IMG/VR virus record: IMGVR_UViG_3300021135_000003
Strand: one strand, 5' to 3'
DNA: 64,000 nt
Source: a virus
Shown: one piece after another, positions 6,850 to 12,967 of the stretch
Layout of the letters: each line of letters opens with the position of its first letter
How positions within the stretch are numbered: position 1 is the stretch's first letter
Program-made: the position numbers and the translations under genes
Notes under the pieces: model-generated
What the model saw: only the letters and a program-made list of their open reading frames with translations
Database searches by the model: none
Told to the model about the DNA's origin: nothing

Positions 6850-7074
6850 ATGAAATATTTGAAAGTTGCGGGACACGCTGGTTTAGTTAGAGATACCACG
6901 ACTGGCGCAATCCTAAATACTAATAAGAGTGAATATGAGGAATATATCGCTAGACAGCGTGAAGCTGAGGAGCGAGAAGCTGAAATTTCTCAACATACTG
7001 AAGATATAAATAACATTAAGAACGAATTGCAGGACATTAAATCATTGCTTCTTCAAATATTGAAAAAAGATTGA
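6850..7074 (+). CDS. Small coiled-coil protein typically found after VrlC-like genes
   Basis: KVAGHAGLVRDTTTGAILN start with a heptad-rich C-terminus; adjacent to the upstream stop. Confidence 0.7.
   Translation: MKYLKVAGHAGLVRDTTTGAILNTNKSEYEEYIARQREAEEREAEISQHTEDINNIKNELQDIKSLLLQILKKD
7005..7012 (+). promoter_or_regulatory. T4 late promoter TATAAATA driving the Cys-tipped fibre cassette
   Basis: Exact TATAAATA 79 nt upstream of ATG 7091. Confidence 0.65.
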
Positions 7075-7090: not shown

Positions 7091-8293
7091 ATGGCAAACA
7101 TAACATCCGCATCTATTACGCTAAGATCTTCTAAAGGAAGCCCTCTTACTAATACAGAAGTAGATAATAACTTCTCAAACATTAATACAGCCCTTGCGAC
7201 TGGTCTTACTGCAGCTAGTTATACTGCAGCAGACGTATTATCAAAATTAAACTCTGTTTCTGGACCTACTCAAGCTGGTGGTGTAAACGCTGATACTGTG
7301 ACCTTTGCGTCTGGTGCTCGTTCTGCTACTAACTTGGCTACTGGTAATACTATCGTTGCTCGCGACAGTTCTGGAAATTTCTCTGCTACTACGATTACTG
7401 CTAACTTAACTGGAACTGCCTCTGTTGCTTCTAGTTTAAACTATACAGTGGCTATTTCTGGTGGTGGTACTGGTGCTACTGACGCTGGTACTGCTCGTAC
7501 TAACCTTGGACTTGCTATTGGTTCAAACGTACAAGCATATAGCGGAACTCTTGCTGCATTAGCTGGTACAACTACTGCTACTGATACTTTACCATACTAC
7601 ACTGGAGCAGGAACTGCGTCAACCACTACTTTTGGTTCTTATGGAAGAACATTAGTTGGTTCTGCTGATGCTCCTACTGCTCGTAGTAATCTTGGTCTAG
7701 TTATTGGCACTAACGTACAAGCATATGACGCAACATTAACTTCATTGGCTGGTTCTGGAACTGGTATTTTAGTTAAAACAGGTACTGGTACAACTGCTCC
7801 TCGCTCACTTGCTGCTGGCACAGGTATTACTATTAGTAACGCTGATGGTACTGGTGGTAACCCAACGATCTCCGTTACATCTTATGTTTCTTCTGTACAA
7901 GGAGCAATAGGTGCTGTTATTGTTTCTGTTCCTGTTACATCCGTTCAAGGTAGCATTGGTGGTGTTATTGTAACAAACATCTCTGGTTCTGCTGGATATG
8001 CTACTAATGCTGGTTATGCTACTAATGCTGGTTACGCTGGAAACTCTGGCGGTGGTTGGCCAGGTTCTCTATCGCAGTTTTCCAATAACTTAGGTAACTA
8101 TGGCGCATGGGTTCCGCATAACCAAAAATATGGTCAACAGCGTATGTCTGGTTTTGGACCATATTCTGGAGGGCAGGGTAACTGTGGTAATAATCCATAT
8201 GGTCCAGTTGCGTATATTTACTTGGATACTGGCTCTGCTATGAATGCTGGTTGGTACCATCAAAATTGTCACAACTGTAACTGTAACTGCTAA
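7091..8293 (+). CDS. Tail fibre-like protein with C-terminal Asn-Cys repeat (NC…NCHNCNCNC)
   Basis: N-terminal LRSSKGSPLTNTEVDNNF fibre-attachment motif, two ARxNLGLxIGxNVQAY fibre repeats and GGTGAT/AGYATN repeats. All 5 Cys lie in the last 37 aa. Confidence 0.8.
   Translation: MANITSASITLRSSKGSPLTNTEVDNNFSNINTALATGLTAASYTAADVLSKLNSVSGPTQAGGVNADTVTFASGARSATNLATGNTIVARDSSGNFSATTITANLTGTASVASSLNYTVAISGGGTGATDAGTARTNLGLAIGSNVQAYSGTLAALAGTTTATDTLPYYTGAGTASTTTFGSYGRTLVGSADAPTARSNLGLVIGTNVQAYDATLTSLAGSGTGILVKTGTGTTAPRSLAAGTGITISNADGTGGNPTISVTSYVSSVQGAIGAVIVSVPVTSVQGSIGGVIVTNISGSAGYATNAGYATNAGYAGNSGGGWPGSLSQFSNNLGNYGAWVPHNQKYGQQRMSGFGPYSGGQGNCGNNPYGPVAYIYLDTGSAMNAGWYHQNCHNCNCNC
7991..8038 (+). repeat. 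18-bp tandem repeat encoding (AGYATN)x2.7
   Basis: gctggatatgctactaat gctggttatgctactaat gctggttacgct. Confidence 0.8.
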
Positions 8294-8304
8294 GGATAAA
8301 AATA

Positions 8305-9141
8305 ATGGCAATAATTAAAAAAATTAAACCTGTAGCTCAGTATTTTCCAGAGTTATTTACTGGAAAAAATCATACAATAAATTATATTTTTAATATAACA
8401 GAAGATGTATTGAACTTACAAATAACTAGAACTAAAACAACTGAAGAAGAAGATGTAGTTTTATACGCATTTTCTCTTTCGTTAGACGTATTAAAATCAA
8501 GTTCTCGACTTTCTGATCATTCATATTGGACTTTTGGTAATGTAAATTTACACCCAATTGATGGATATGTACAAAATTTAACTGTTGCTAATTTGTTATC
8601 AATTTTTGATAAAACATTTGCAACTAAACCAAAAATATTAGTGAATGAACAATTAGGTGGTGCTGAACTTGATTACAAGTTTCCTGTTAGAATATTCGTT
8701 CCTTCTTATAATTCAAAATTTACTGATTGTACATTTTTAGTTGCTAAATTTGATCAGTTACAACCTACAGATGATTCTCCGCCTGTAAACGATCCATATA
8801 ATATTAGTATAACAGTAGATGTAAATTCTCCAAATACATTTGTTGATGAATTTACTACTGCTTCTGAATTATTGGGAACAGTAACTTCTTCAACTACTCT
8901 TACCGATGTTTCTGCTGGTACCACAATTCCTGTTACTGTAACATGTTCAGATATTTCTGTTTCTATATTGTATCTTGAATCTGTGTGTGGTATTCTAGAT
9001 AGAAATCAAGTAAAAATGACAAATGGTTCTGGAACATTTAATGTTTTAACAAATACGTTAGAATCAGGCGATACTGTAGAGATTAAAATTGGATATAAAA
9101 AATATTCTAATGTTAATACCTTTACTAAAACATTAGCATAA
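8305..9141 (+). CDS. Hypothetical protein with a predicted beta-sandwich/Ig-like C-terminus; candidate partner of the Cys-tipped fibre and radical SAM enzyme
   Basis: 278 aa with AAGGA SD. Alternating beta pattern in the last ~90 aa (TIPVTVTC…LYLESVCGILD…GSGTFNV…GDTVEIKIGYKKY). Confidence 0.65.
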   Translation: MAIIKKIKPVAQYFPELFTGKNHTINYIFNITEDVLNLQITRTKTTEEEDVVLYAFSLSLDVLKSSSRLSDHSYWTFGNVNLHPIDGYVQNLTVANLLSIFDKTFATKPKILVNEQLGGAELDYKFPVRIFVPSYNSKFTDCTFLVAKFDQLQPTDDSPPVNDPYNISITVDVNSPNTFVDEFTTASELLGTVTSSTTLTDVSAGTTIPVTVTCSDISVSILYLESVCGILDRNQVKMTNGSGTFNVLTNTLESGDTVEIKIGYKKYSNVNTFTKTLA

Positions 9142-9159
9142 ATATTTTTATACTATGTT

Positions 9160-9190
9160 AATCCCACTATAACATAGTGGGATTTTTCTT
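9160..9190 (+). terminator. Intrinsic terminator-like hairpin between the 278-aa gene and the radical SAM gene
   Basis: aatcccactat-aac-atagtgggatt followed by a T-rich run. Confidence 0.6.
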
Positions 9191-9209
9191 TTTATACTCG
9201 GAATAAACT

Positions 9210-10604
9210 ATGGCCAAATTTGAAATTACCGCACATAATCCTTTAACCAAAGATACACGTAAAATAATTTACGATTCTTCTAGAAGTACATTGAAATGGG
9301 AAGATGGTACTGATCTAGTAGATTTTCCAAAAACACCAACAATTATTGCAGAAAAACAAATTAAAATTCAGCAAGGCAAGCGCGACTTATCAACAATAAA
9401 AATTCAGCTTGGTCTTTCGTGTAATTTTGAATGTGATTATTGTAATCAAAGATTTGTACCCCACGCAGATTCAACTAATCCAGACGATGTATTTCCATTT
9501 GTTATGAATATGTCAACCTGGTATAAAGGTGGGGAAGATGGCCAAGGTAAAGGAACTAAAATTGAATTTTGGGGTGGAGAGCCATTCGTTTATTGGAAAA
9601 CAATGAAACCTCTTGCTGAAATGATAAGGATGCGATACCCTAATGCAGAATTTGGAGTTATTACAAACGGTAGTCTGTTGGACCAAGAGAAAAATGATTG
9701 GTTAGAAAAACTAAATTTCTCTGTTTCAGTATCACATGATGGTCCAGGTCAATTTGTTCGTGGTCCAGATCCATTATTAGATACTACCTCAAAGGCAGGT
9801 ATTATAGATTTATATAAAAGACTTGCGCCAAAACAACGATTTAGTTTTAATTCCATGATTAATAGTAAGAATATTAGTCGTGTTGATATTGAAGCATTTT
9901 TTGTAAAATTTGTTGTCGATGAAATTGGACCAACATACTTAAATCATCTTATGATAGGTGAGGGTACTTTTGTTGATGCCTATGATGAAGGTGGATTGGC
10001 TAATTCATTATTAGACGAGGAAGAAGATATTGCATTTAGAAATAAATCTTTAATGGATTTACGTTCTGGTAATGCAATGAAGTTTGGTACAATTCATGAT
10101 AAAGTAAAGGGTTTTATTGCATCACTAGAAACGAGAATCCCTCTTGAAGTTGTTACTCAAAAGTGCGGTATGGACAAACCTGAGAATATTGCGATTGACT
10201 TAAATGGTAACGTGTTAACCTGCCAAAATGTAAGCACAGCTTCGATTAATCCTGCAGGTGTTTCTCATCATATTGGCCATGTTTCTAATCTGGAAGCAGT
10301 TGATTTAAAAACATCAACTCACTGGAGTGATAGAGAAGAATGCCCAAATTGTCCAGTAGTTCATATTTGTAAAGGTGCTTGTATGTTTCTTTCTGGAGAA
10401 CTTTGGGAAGCATCTTGTAATAATGCCTTTAGTGATAATATAACTGTACTAACAATCGCTATAGAGATTCTTTCCAAGGGATATGTTCTTGGTTATATTG
10501 AAGGACCATTACGTCAAGATAGAAAAGATGTTTACTGGTGGATGAATGGTAAACCAGAAAATACTCGTAAAGCAAAAAAAGTAATCTCAATTATGGCAGT
10601 ATAA
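9210..10604 (+). CDS. Radical SAM enzyme with C-terminal SPASM domain (peptide/protein maturase class)
   Basis: CNFECDYC (CxxxCxxC), FWGGEP, ITNG and SVSHDG, plus SPASM cysteines KCG…DLNGNVLTC…CPNCPVVHICKGAC…C. Confidence 0.92.
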   Translation: MAKFEITAHNPLTKDTRKIIYDSSRSTLKWEDGTDLVDFPKTPTIIAEKQIKIQQGKRDLSTIKIQLGLSCNFECDYCNQRFVPHADSTNPDDVFPFVMNMSTWYKGGEDGQGKGTKIEFWGGEPFVYWKTMKPLAEMIRMRYPNAEFGVITNGSLLDQEKNDWLEKLNFSVSVSHDGPGQFVRGPDPLLDTTSKAGIIDLYKRLAPKQRFSFNSMINSKNISRVDIEAFFVKFVVDEIGPTYLNHLMIGEGTFVDAYDEGGLANSLLDEEEDIAFRNKSLMDLRSGNAMKFGTIHDKVKGFIASLETRIPLEVVTQKCGMDKPENIAIDLNGNVLTCQNVSTASINPAGVSHHIGHVSNLEAVDLKTSTHWSDREECPNCPVVHICKGACMFLSGELWEASCNNAFSDNITVLTIAIEILSKGYVLGYIEGPLRQDRKDVYWWMNGKPENTRKAKKVISIMAV

Positions 10605-10605
10605 G

Positions 10606-10899
10606 ATGGAATCATTCATTAAAGGGTATCTTTTTGAAATTAATGGATTCCCAAGAAATAACGATCTTTTTACGATAAAAGATTATTTTTATTACGAATC
10701 AAATACACCAGAATATGGGTATAGAGACACAATTATCCCACGAGAACTTGTTATAAATAATGATGAAATTCCAGATGAAGGTATCATAAGAGAACTTATA
10801 AATAAAGGTATATTCTCTATGAAAAGGTCAATTGACCTAAATAAACAAACAGAAACGTGGTTTTTTGAAACTAAGTGTTTAAAGGAAATAAACAAATGA
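10606..10899 (+). CDS. Hypothetical 97-aa protein in the radical SAM cassette
   Basis: Starts 1 nt after the rSAM stop; its stop overlaps the next start (ATGA). Confidence 0.6.
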   Translation: MESFIKGYLFEINGFPRNNDLFTIKDYFYYESNTPEYGYRDTIIPRELVINNDEIPDEGIIRELINKGIFSMKRSIDLNKQTETWFFETKCLKEINK

Positions 10900-11843
10900 C
10901 AACCAAACATGTAAAATGGGTTATTGCCCACGAGCCAATCGGCTTATTTTTGAAAGTTGCAGAAGCATTTTCTGCTGAAGTTAACGAGAAAACTAATGGT
11001 GCATTTAACATCGAAGTTCTTTCTTTAACTGACTATACTAACAAGTATAATGCTGGTAAGAAAATTACCAAGAATGAACTAATGGAGTTGGTTGATAATG
11101 GCACTATCGAAATGAGCCATATCTACACTACTTGGTTGGCTGATTACAATAAAGATCTTCATGCTTTAGATCTACCATTCCTATTCCGCGATCATGATCA
11201 CGCTAATGCAGTTTTAGAAGGCGAGATCGGTGCTGAGTTATTAGCAGGTGTTGCTAAGAATTCTAATACTCACGCTATGTCTTTCACTTACTCTGGTGGA
11301 TATCGTGTTGTTCCAGCTAACTTCCGTGCTGATACTGTAGAAGCATGGCAAGGTCAAACAGTTCGTACTTCTCGTAGCCCAGTTGCTGTTGAAACTTTCA
11401 AACTTCTTGGTGCTGAGCCAAAAGAGCATATCGCTCTTGAGGAAATGAATGAATTTGCAGATCGCGGTGAGATCGCTGCTGGTGAGTCTACTTACGTACG
11501 TATTTTCCCACTAGATCAATATAAGTCTTTCAAAGTTGTTAATGATACAGCACACAGCTTGTTCTTGACTTCTATTATCGTTAATAAAGATTTCATGAGC
11601 CAGTTTGATGATGAGACTCAAGAGATTATGGCTACTGCTGCATTCAATGCTGCTCGTAAAGAGCGTCGCGAATCAGTTGCTGATATTCCTAACATTCTTG
11701 CAGAATGTGAAGCCAAAGGTGTTGAAGTTGTTCGTATGTCTGCTGAAGAAGAAAGTAAGTTCAAACAAGTTACTTCTAAGGTATATGAGAAATTTGCTGA
11801 TTACTTCACTCCAGGTTTGGTTCAGAAGATTCAGTTACATTAA
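10896..11843 (+). CDS. TRAP-transporter DctP-like solute-binding protein, no signal peptide
   Basis: FSAEVNEKTNGAFNIEV, LDLPFLFRDHDHA, GGYR, GQTVRT and FKLLGA motifs of the DctP family. AAGGA SD before ATG 10896. No hydrophobic N-terminal signal. Confidence 0.8.
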   Translation: MTTKHVKWVIAHEPIGLFLKVAEAFSAEVNEKTNGAFNIEVLSLTDYTNKYNAGKKITKNELMELVDNGTIEMSHIYTTWLADYNKDLHALDLPFLFRDHDHANAVLEGEIGAELLAGVAKNSNTHAMSFTYSGGYRVVPANFRADTVEAWQGQTVRTSRSPVAVETFKLLGAEPKEHIALEEMNEFADRGEIAAGESTYVRIFPLDQYKSFKVVNDTAHSLFLTSIIVNKDFMSQFDDETQEIMATAAFNAARKERRESVADIPNILAECEAKGVEVVRMSAEEESKFKQVTSKVYEKFADYFTPGLVQKIQLH

Positions 11844-11866
11844 TTGTAATTAATGCCTAAATATGA

Positions 11867-11888
11867 GGGAGCTTCGGCTCCCTTTTTA
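11867..11888 (+). terminator. Intrinsic terminator with cUUCGg tetraloop
   Basis: gggagc-ttcg-gctccc-ttttt after the DctP-like gene. Confidence 0.8.
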
Positions 11889-11902
11889 TTTTGAAAGATA
11901 TT

Positions 11903-12967
11903 ATGAATAAACCAAAACATCCAGAAATTTTATATTATGATGTAAATAATGTATCAAAATATATGAAAGGACGTCCTGAAGATTTAATAAATTTTTCAGT
12001 TGAACGTAACGCTCAAACATATTTTGAATTGTATGAACTCTTTGGATTAAACAAGTATAATGTTGTCTACGATAGAACTGGGAACTTACCCCATTATCTT
12101 AGAATGGTTCCAGATTTATATCCAATACCAGATGCAGATATAAGTTATAATAAATCATTCTTTGAAGTAACAGAACAAAGATGTAAAGAATTACTTGCTC
12201 TAAACAAACCAATAAATGTTATGTGGTCTGGTGGTATTGATAGCACCTTTGTTTTGTTTATGTTACATTATTTTGCAAACGATAAAGATCAAGTTCGAGT
12301 TTGTGGGACTTATAATTCTATAATAGAATCTGGGGATATGTTTGACAGAAAAATTAAACATATGTTCAACCATAAGATAACAATCCCATTTACTAATGAG
12401 ATTAATTACCAAGAAGATGGGATCTATGTAAGCGGAATGTGCGGGAATCAGTTATTTGGTCCAACTGATGATATGTTTGCAACAGGTGGACCAGCAATGT
12501 TCCACCACACTCTTGGCACAAAAGAAACCATATATGAGCCGTATGAGAAAAATGTTGATCAAAAATTCTTGGAATTTTTAGATCCAGCGATCAAAGCCAG
12601 CCCAAGAAAACTTGAAACTGTCGCAGATTTACGATGGTATTGCATTTTTAATTTAGATTGGTATACTGCAGTTTATGAACATAAGATACGATTAGAACCA
12701 TCTAAGGCGGAGAAGATTCATGGGTTTTTTAATTCCATCGAATTTCAAAAATGGGCAGTAAATACTAAAGAGCCGTTCACAAAGATAAGAGGGGATTCAA
12801 CTACTCATCGATGGCAGATGAGAGAAATCCTTAAAGATCTATTTGGTGAAGAACATTATGCATTAAACAAAACGAAAAAGATATCTAATTTTGGAATCAA
12901 TCAGCAGAACTGGATTTTTCTACTAGAAGGATATCATAATGTTTTTGTCGACCAAGATGCAAACTAA
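11903..12967 (+). CDS. Adenine-nucleotide alpha-hydrolase (PP-loop) protein, asparagine-synthetase C-domain-like
   Basis: VMWSGGIDS PP-loop; SGMCGNQLFG resembles the AsnB (S/T)GxG(A/G)DExFG motif. No N-terminal Ntn glutaminase Cys. Confidence 0.7.
   Translation: MNKPKHPEILYYDVNNVSKYMKGRPEDLINFSVERNAQTYFELYELFGLNKYNVVYDRTGNLPHYLRMVPDLYPIPDADISYNKSFFEVTEQRCKELLALNKPINVMWSGGIDSTFVLFMLHYFANDKDQVRVCGTYNSIIESGDMFDRKIKHMFNHKITIPFTNEINYQEDGIYVSGMCGNQLFGPTDDMFATGGPAMFHHTLGTKETIYEPYEKNVDQKFLEFLDPAIKASPRKLETVADLRWYCIFNLDWYTAVYEHKIRLEPSKAEKIHGFFNSIEFQKWAVNTKEPFTKIRGDSTTHRWQMREILKDLFGEEHYALNKTKKISNFGINQQNWIFLLEGYHNVFVDQDAN

Follow-up and report, generated by a model that had tools for sequence, protein, structure and literature searches.

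A conserved phage cassette of tail fibre, Ig-domain partner and radical SAM/SPASM enzyme with a probable role in modifying the Asn-Cys tip of the fibre

The viral sequence IMGVR_UViG_3300021135_000003 of the IMG/VR database, a stretch of 64,000 nucleotides hereafter called the window, contains a six-gene block which begins with a gene encoding a tail-fibre protein of 400 amino acids (aa) ending in a run of Asn-Cys pairs. This gene is followed by those encoding a 278-aa all-beta protein, a radical S-adenosylmethionine (SAM) enzyme with a SPASM domain, a 97-aa protein, a DctP-like protein and a PP-loop protein. The analysis of these genes and of their relatives leads us to propose, with moderate confidence, that the fibre, the 278-aa protein and the radical SAM enzyme constitute one conserved three-part system which modifies the Asn-Cys tail of the fibre by thioether cross-links. 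That the enzyme acts on the tail, whatever the reaction, is very likely since both were found to co-occur in the two directions in which this was studied. Phages having both the tail and the enzyme would thus probably modify their fibre tips chemically.

The fibre protein contains only five Cys, at residues 365, 393, 396, 398 and 400, all of them located within the final 36 residues and each one preceded by Asn. This agrees with an earlier note on this DNA, made from its sequence, which had described a Cys-free fibre body with an Asn-Cys tip: the first Cys is residue 365 and the protein ends in NCHNCNCNC. Among the open reading frames (ORFs) of at least 60 codons of the window, the (X-Cys)x3 run is unique to the fibre. 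In the clade to which the window belongs, the last six residues follow the pattern N-C-x-C-N-C, in which the Cys are invariant and the whole pattern is invariant or nearly so, and a G-N-C-G-N motif is conserved about 30 residues upstream of the terminal tail. Comparison of 99 distinct tails revealed that Asn precedes 75% of the tail Cys whereas it represents 16% of the tail residues; after Asn, the commonest residues at this position were Cys, Asp, Ala, Gly and Gln. The C-terminal residue was Cys in 87 of these 99 tails.

The family of the radical SAM enzyme is very large, with 2771 proteins at E ≤ 1e-20. A sample anchored on this enzyme was composed of 80 viral and 80 genomic loci, the latter mostly prophage-like and from freshwater Burkholderiales, and 125 of them had at least 3.5 kb of upstream sequence. 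At 122 of these 125 loci, an ORF located upstream on the same strand encoded an Asn-Cys run, which was at the very C-terminus in 105 of the 122, and most of the proteins carrying the run were tail-fibre-like; those of lineages other than that of the window also matched tail-fibre PHROGs. When the enzymes were clustered, the pairing with the tail was found in 36 of 37 clusters at 70% identity and in all 8 clusters at 55% identity. The three exceptions were loci L078 and L095 and that of Ralstonia phage RSP15 (L001), whose fibre end has only two Cys. The earlier note had proposed to examine whether homologues of the enzyme keep an upstream (Asn-Cys)n fibre, also in prophages, and had considered that its hypothesis would fall if most of them lacked a Cys-rich upstream fibre. 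These results show that the fibre is kept, prophages included, and such a general lack was not seen. The reverse test was anchored on the gene encoding a 74-aa virion structural protein (p74) that adjoins the fibre gene. Tail and enzyme were both present at 30 of the p74-anchored loci and both absent from 15, one of which (L210) has an anchor protein with 63% identity, and no discordant locus was found.

Among GenBank phages, the closest radical SAM enzymes were those of Ralstonia phage RSP15 (45% identity) and Achromobacter phage JWF (43% identity). In RSP15, a side tail fibre ending in NTNCQCGN is followed by a 272-aa protein, a 277-aa protein and the enzyme, and in JWF a fibre containing NCNCDCNCNCSC and then a Hint domain is followed by a 241-aa protein and the enzyme. 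The pairing of tail and enzyme therefore spans types of phage that are unrelated, namely T4-like freshwater phages, RSP15, which is classified into the Ackermannviridae, the siphovirus JWF and Burkholderiales prophages. The edge of the enzyme family is the locus of the jumbo Ralstonia phage RP12, which encodes a distant relative (25% identity) with different neighbours and no Asn-Cys tail. At this locus (L315:382-7107), three radical SAM genes are placed after a gene encoding a 125-aa His/Tyr-rich and Cys-free protein (HTHNYYDYYW ... HTHYSPDGSY), and this cassette may constitute another system of modification associated with fibres.

The protein encoded by the third gene has all the elements of a complete radical SAM/SPASM enzyme, as had been proposed. 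The radical SAM domain PF04055 was matched with 30.0 bits (cut-off 29.5) and its CX3CX2C motif is present, the cluster Cys (C71, C75 and C78) showing no variation among 12 and among 24 homologues. The SPASM domain TIGR04085 was matched at residues 319-394 with 34 bits (cut-off 27), and the seven SPASM Cys (C319, C338, C378, C381, C387, C391 and C403) are invariant as well. The protein contains exactly 10 Cys, every one of them invariant among relatives, in a homologue alignment from which two proteins of GenBank phage records were left out. In addition, it matched phrog_1802 at 6e-63 and carries a 60-residue N-terminal extension. Its top curated matches were peptide thioether maturases, among them PapB-type (7e-16), QhpD-type (1.6e-11) and SCIFF. 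On sequence grounds, this enzyme is a family of its own.

In the mechanism proposed, the enzyme would act after translation, in the infected cell, on the Cys of the C-terminal Asn-Cys tail of the fibre. The thiol of a Cys, bound to an auxiliary Fe-S cluster, would be the donor and a carbon of a neighbouring residue, usually Asn, the acceptor. The resulting thioethers would link residues within one fibre chain or between chains, and the modified tail would not leave the fibre but belong to the distal tip of the virion. By likeness to NxxcB, PapB, QhpD and CrpC, a thioether with Cys as donor appears to be the most likely chemistry, and it is favoured, first of all, because Cys is invariant in the tails. 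CteB has an open iron site in an auxiliary cluster that takes the substrate thiolate, and the seven Cys available for two auxiliary clusters in the phage enzyme would fit a site of this kind, which also favours a thioether.

Several enzymes of published function support this proposal by analogy. NxxcB, the maturase of a streptococcal radical SAM peptide of the class of ribosomally synthesised peptides with post-translational modifications (RiPPs), makes a thioether between the Cys sulfur and the beta-carbon of Asn, tolerates Ala, Gln and Asp as acceptors and does not admit replacement of the Cys (PMC9389541). As these tolerated acceptors match the residues that substitute for Asn in the phage tails, they also favour a thioether. 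Compared by published description, NxxcB and its substrate NxxcA resemble the phage cassette in the radical SAM/SPASM-type maturase, the Cys donor and the Asn acceptor. However, NxxcA is a short secreted peptide that has a leader and an N-x-x-C motif, whereas the phage would use a 400-aa fibre with adjacent N-C at its C-terminus. A precedent for links between adjacent residues is given by TqqB, which forms an ether between adjacent Thr and Gln with a backbone morpholine (PMC9389541). Directly adjacent residues are the only spacing possible in N-C-N-C, but the product of TqqB is an ether and not a thioether, its substrate is a small peptide and the analogy is chemical only. For whole-protein substrates, the precedent comes from QhpD and CrpC, radical SAM/SPASM enzymes that introduce thioether cross-links into the proteins QhpC and CrpA, respectively (PMC13692751, a paper in which phages go unmentioned). 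In both cases the enzyme modifies a Cys-rich region of a protein encoded by a neighbouring gene, and the product of QhpC stays in a larger assembly. Unlike the phage fibre with its Ig partner, these substrates are a subunit of a cellular amine dehydrogenase and an archaeal protein, with C-x-x-D/Q-type motifs.

Several points weigh against the thioether proposal. The sequences show the gene families, the tail, its co-occurrence with the enzyme both ways and its maintenance at the C-terminus; from these we infer that the enzyme modifies the tail, that thioethers are formed, what the 278-aa protein does and that the products are present in the virion. The sampled loci are phylogenetically related, so the counts given above exceed the number of independent events, a problem made smaller by their distribution among four types of phage and 37 clusters. 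For every named maturase family, the enzyme remained far under the curated cut-off: 58.3 bits versus 340 for PapB-type ranthipeptide maturases (NF047865), 36.8 versus 425 for SCIFF maturases (TIGR03974) and 34.5 versus 349.45 for anaerobic sulfatase-maturating enzymes (anSME; TIGR03942). PapB with freyrasin and CteB with SCIFF (PDB 5WGG), to which the radical SAM core was most similar among the curated families and, in addition, in a PDB match, are alike in their SPASM auxiliary clusters and Cys-rich repeated cores; however, they use Asp or another residue as acceptor, with C-x3-D spacing, in small peptides, and the phage enzyme differs in that no RiPP recognition element (RRE)-like leader-binding domain was detected in it. 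The similarity to CteB covers the radical SAM core only and the SCIFF peptide is absent from the locus. Judged as a RiPP cluster in the strict sense, the cassette has no RRE, protease or transporter family match, and its candidate substrate is a 400-aa fibre. The top PDB sequence match was TvgB (8VPO), a cyclopropylglycine synthase, followed by CteB and anSME, and this match, together with the family scores below the cut-offs, means that the type of reaction is not fixed by the sequence.

Another radical reaction on the tail, such as formylglycine formation as in anSME, epimerisation, C-C cross-linking or cyclopropanation, has accordingly to be considered. Besides the TvgB and anSME matches, it would be in agreement with the name 'anaerobic sulfatase-maturating enzyme' under which the JWF gene was deposited and with the many different reactions that SPASM enzymes catalyse. 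However, the substrate motif of anSME (C/S-x-P/A-x-R) is absent from the tail NCHNCNCNC, as are the Val pairs of TvgB substrates, the anSME score is a small fraction of the cut-off, and the invariant residues of the tail are Cys, the universal donor of radical SAM thioether synthases. For these reasons we regard another radical reaction as rather unlikely.

The last points against thioether formation are that ladders of Cys could simply bind metal and that many relatives (L012, L014, L015 and L020, among others) have His-rich stretches just ahead of the Asn-Cys tail, e.g., DPHHHHNNCTNCNCNC and DPHHHHNNC, which hint at metal binding near the tip. The Asn-Cys ladder would then be a metal or Fe-S site on the axis of the trimeric fibre, and the radical SAM enzyme would do another job or help to load or stabilise the site. 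Phage T4 gp37 has His-x-His iron sites and short fibres have metal sites near the tip, which also are alternating motifs of ligand residues near the end of a trimeric fibre, but formed by His and not by Cys and without a dedicated enzyme. Furthermore, the alternating pattern of the tail places every Cys on one face of a beta-strand, and CrpA has been discussed as a possible metal binder (PMC13692751). Nevertheless, the binding of a metal would not require a radical enzyme of its own, whereas the tail and the enzyme were found together both ways, and metal ligation leaves unexplained the 75% preference for Asn before Cys. We consequently consider a metal site to be improbable.

The position of the tail provides an additional argument about its destination. 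The Asn-Cys run is internal in three lineages (JWF gp028, L060:4013-5434 and L114:4247-5389), and in all of them a Hint self-cleaving domain begins exactly at the last Cys of the run. Self-cleavage would therefore leave the run as the new C-terminus of the fibre, an argument for a tail that is retained by the fibre and has to be terminal. An opposite explanation is that the tail is a RiPP core which, once cut from a fibre-like leader, becomes a free small peptide with bioactivity, so that the virion itself would not be modified. The long Cys-free N-terminal part followed by a Cys-rich end resembles indeed a leader plus core, and some loci (L044:2868-3648 and L080, in the latter ahead of the partner gene) have, instead of one long fibre, three tandem NC-tailed ORFs of 81-94 aa, each of them ending in NCNCxCNC. 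However, the cassette has neither a protease nor an exporter gene, the carriers of the run match tail-fibre families and are flanked by structural genes, and the cleavage in the Hint fusions keeps the run on the fibre. The release of a peptide is, as a consequence, very improbable.

Relatives of the 278-aa protein are encoded directly 3' of the Asn-Cys protein in every lineage but JWF and share the C-terminal signature G-[FY]-K-x-[FY]-S. This protein is thus a conserved core member across lineages, and its assignment to the cassette in the earlier note was correct. Its AlphaFold2 (AF2) model is all-beta (pLDDT 86), and residues 190-278 align to the Ig domains of intimin and invasin (Z 9.3-10.1, root-mean-square deviation 2.2-2.6 Å over 83-87 residues). 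This C-terminal domain is a bacterial Ig-like (Big) domain by structure, with no match in Pfam by sequence. A Foldseek search with the whole model gave generic tandem-Ig matches only and assigned no fold to the N-terminal 189 residues, and the Atlas look-alikes (Big_2 and tail-tube-like clusters, about 0.8) were discarded for being under the trustworthy level. The N-terminal part evolves fast, with 20-40% identity where the enzymes are 57-85% identical, and locus L044 holds two paralogues of the protein. Co-folding of the fibre tail, the enzyme and the 278-aa partner gave a score of 0.01, which says nothing either way. We propose that the 278-aa protein would be a stoichiometric partner of the fibre, acting as a tip subunit or adhesin or as an adaptor presenting the substrate. 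It is also conceivable, although doubtful, that intermolecular thioethers lock the three chains of the tip or staple the Ig partner, as a candidate adhesin, onto the conserved tail, with possible backbone thiomorpholine rings from adjacent Asn-Cys. If such links exist, they would represent an enzyme-made, covalently cross-linked receptor-binding tip in phages.

The gene of the partner is set apart from that of the enzyme by a stable, conserved hairpin. Nearly all the relatives of the clade (L003-L054) have a hairpin in this same gap, with stem sequences that differ, and an ATAAATA-like motif is often found just 5' of it. The hairpin may act, as a conserved element, in attenuation or RNA stability and be accompanied by a late promoter, and its position would fit a high expression of fibre and partner and a lower expression of the enzyme.

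The 97-aa, DctP-like and PP-loop genes that complete the block were also attributed by the earlier note to the maturation system. This part of the proposal was not maintained, since the three genes are optional, missing in close relatives and free-standing elsewhere. They are absent from many close relatives having the same kind of tail (L005, L010, L018-L024 and L029), and in the clade of the window they are placed either after the enzyme gene or between it and the 278-aa gene. In another phage lineage (L256:5768-8041) the trio was found with neither the radical SAM gene nor an Asn-Cys tail within 7 kb; there, one of its flanks has the genes of ribonucleotide reductase and a class II aldolase, and the other has those of a NifU-like protein, a cell-wall hydrolase and Hsp70. 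Judging from this distribution, the trio is a separately mobile module with a putative link to the fibre, and in the proposed mechanism it would be an add-on. The alternative is that the six genes constitute one pathway, in which the AsnB-like PP-loop enzyme would amidate or ligate the tail using a ligand held by the DctP-like protein. In its favour, the trio of the window's clade is always inserted inside the cassette, a locus of Polynucleobacter (L143) has a distant PP-loop homologue near its radical SAM gene, carboxylates are adenylated by the AsnB fold and the DctP-like protein keeps its carboxylate-binding Arg. On the contrary, the presence of the trio does not track the type of tail, and this fact, together with the relatives that lack it and the lineage in which it stands alone, makes a single pathway unlikely. 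A role of the AsnB-like gene in Asp-to-Asn conversion or in tail-specific residues was likewise rejected because its presence was uncorrelated with the tail sequence.

The DctP-like gene is the most conserved of the block (65-92% identity). Its product matched PF03480 with 138.5 bits (cut-off 23.4; 3.6e-40) and NF037995 with 104 (cut-off 50), and no more than about 12 residues lie ahead of the mature DctP domain, leaving no room for a signal peptide; the earlier description as a signal-less DctP-like protein is therefore right. The start of this gene was listed at the GTG of position 10875, but since homologues align over 313-315 residues this codon is probably too early and the ATG at 10896 is the likely start. 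This ATG would overlap the stop codon of the 97-aa gene (10896-10899, ATGA-type), which suggests translational coupling. DctQM-type membrane genes were found neither in this cassette nor in those of the relatives. With the domain present, and the export signal and the membrane partners absent, the protein has a DctP fold and, as far as can be seen, is apparently not part of a working TRAP transporter. In the 358-aa protein, the PP-loop (WSGGIDST) is invariant, and the AF2 model of this protein (pLDDT 90) matched the synthetase domains of carbapenam synthetase, beta-lactam synthetase and AsnB (probability 1.0, TM by query 0.30-0.42), which confirms the predicted AsnB/PP-loop enzyme. No Pfam or NCBIfam family exceeded the cut-off and no glutaminase domain was identified in it. 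A lasso B protein is absent too, and nothing beyond the shared AsnB fold backs the analogy with lasso cyclases that had been drawn. The trio pairs a cytoplasmic DctP with an AsnB-like ligase. The Atlas look-alikes of the 97-aa protein belonged to no family and were also under the trustworthy level.

The gene order and family assignments of the earlier note were corroborated, as the six genes are open frames on one strand with tight intergenic spacing (11, 68, 1, -25 and 47 nt from fibre to PP-loop gene). Their location inside the virion structural region was equally verified. The block lies within a T4-like structural region, preceded by genes encoding a 2195-aa VrlC-type protein and the 74-aa virion protein and followed by those of more fibres, gp13/14/15-like neck proteins, the large terminase and the sheath. 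The coordinates of all the features are given in Table 1.

Table 1. Genes and sequence elements of the cassette and its 5' neighbour, with positions in the window
Feature	Position	Strand	Remarks
74-aa virion structural protein gene (p74)	6850-7074	+	phrog_473; conserved left neighbour of fibre
TATAAATA, T4 late-promoter-like	7005-7012	+	79 nt 5' of fibre ATG, inside 74-aa gene
Fibre gene	7091-8293	+	400 aa; tail-fibre PHROGs match residues 81-272; proposed substrate
Asn364-Cys365 dipeptide	8180-8185	+	Within conserved G-N-C-G-N motif
Tail NCHNCNCNC, residues 392-400	8264-8290	+	Part-coded by AACTGT hexanucleotide repeats
278-aa all-beta protein gene	8305-9141	+	Third member of conserved core
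Stem-loop (11 bp) and T-run, terminator/attenuator-like	9160-9194	+	Gap between 278-aa and radical SAM genes
Radical SAM/SPASM gene	9210-10604	+	464 aa; PF04055, TIGR04085, phrog_1802
97-aa protein gene	10606-10899	+	First gene of optional trio
DctP-like gene	10875-11843	+	PF03480 domain; second gene of trio; likely start 10896
GC-rich stem-loop GAGGGAGC-TTCG-GCTCCCTT and T-run	11865-11894	+	Between DctP and PP-loop genes, inside trio
PP-loop protein gene	11891-12967	+	358 aa, AsnB-type synthetase domain; third gene of optional trio

A late promoter ahead of the block had also been proposed. The motif TATAAATA is indeed present there, but the argument for a promoter is weak, since the motif falls in the codons for the conserved D-I-N-N of p74 and the window shows no excess of it (6 found versus 7.6 expected). 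Its consideration as a dedicated promoter was, as a result, rejected.

To our knowledge, radical SAM maturation of phage structural proteins is not known. In agreement with this, full-text literature searches found no paper on a system of phage tail fibre and radical SAM, SPASM, thioether or Asn-Cys tail, and the statement of the earlier note that no system of this kind has been characterised holds. Enzymes of this class and chemistry of the likely kind have been described before; the virion fibre tip as their target would be new. If the proposal is true, a RiPP-type cross-linking enzyme belonging to a very large family operates at the host-recognition end of tail fibres, which would be a new class of post-translational modification of virions and would extend to viruses the protein-level thioether chemistry of QhpC and CrpA. 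It would also bear on fibre stability, host range and fibre engineering. A study of pelagimyophages reported 'radical SAM cassettes' in host-recognition clusters and left them unexplained (PMC7029224); the proposed system, if true, would explain them. RSP15 and JWF are cultivable carriers, which makes the system directly testable.

In other lineages, from one to three genes encoding 2-oxoglutarate (2OG)-Fe(II) oxygenases (PF13759) are located between the partner and radical SAM genes (L044:5151-6996 and L112:4903-6782), so that oxygen-dependent enzymes adjoin an oxygen-sensitive one. These extra genes resemble the additions of tailoring cassettes and, by this analogy, may be counted in favour of a modification of the tail.

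The block gave no match with GenBank phages by megablast. The phage has been found repeatedly in freshwater metagenomes from 2012 to 2017, and the exact sequence of its radical SAM enzyme is present on a 169-kb contig. When contigs from four freshwater runs were compared with the tail, no indels of its hexanucleotide repeats were seen, and the contigs contained only pieces of the Asn-Cys tails and radical SAM genes of other phages. In two runs (X15 and X18), contigs of other, more abundant phages matched only the DNA of the Asn-Cys tail (positions 8273-8293 of the window) and short conserved segments of the radical SAM gene, which indicates that several phages with such a tail co-occur in those samples.

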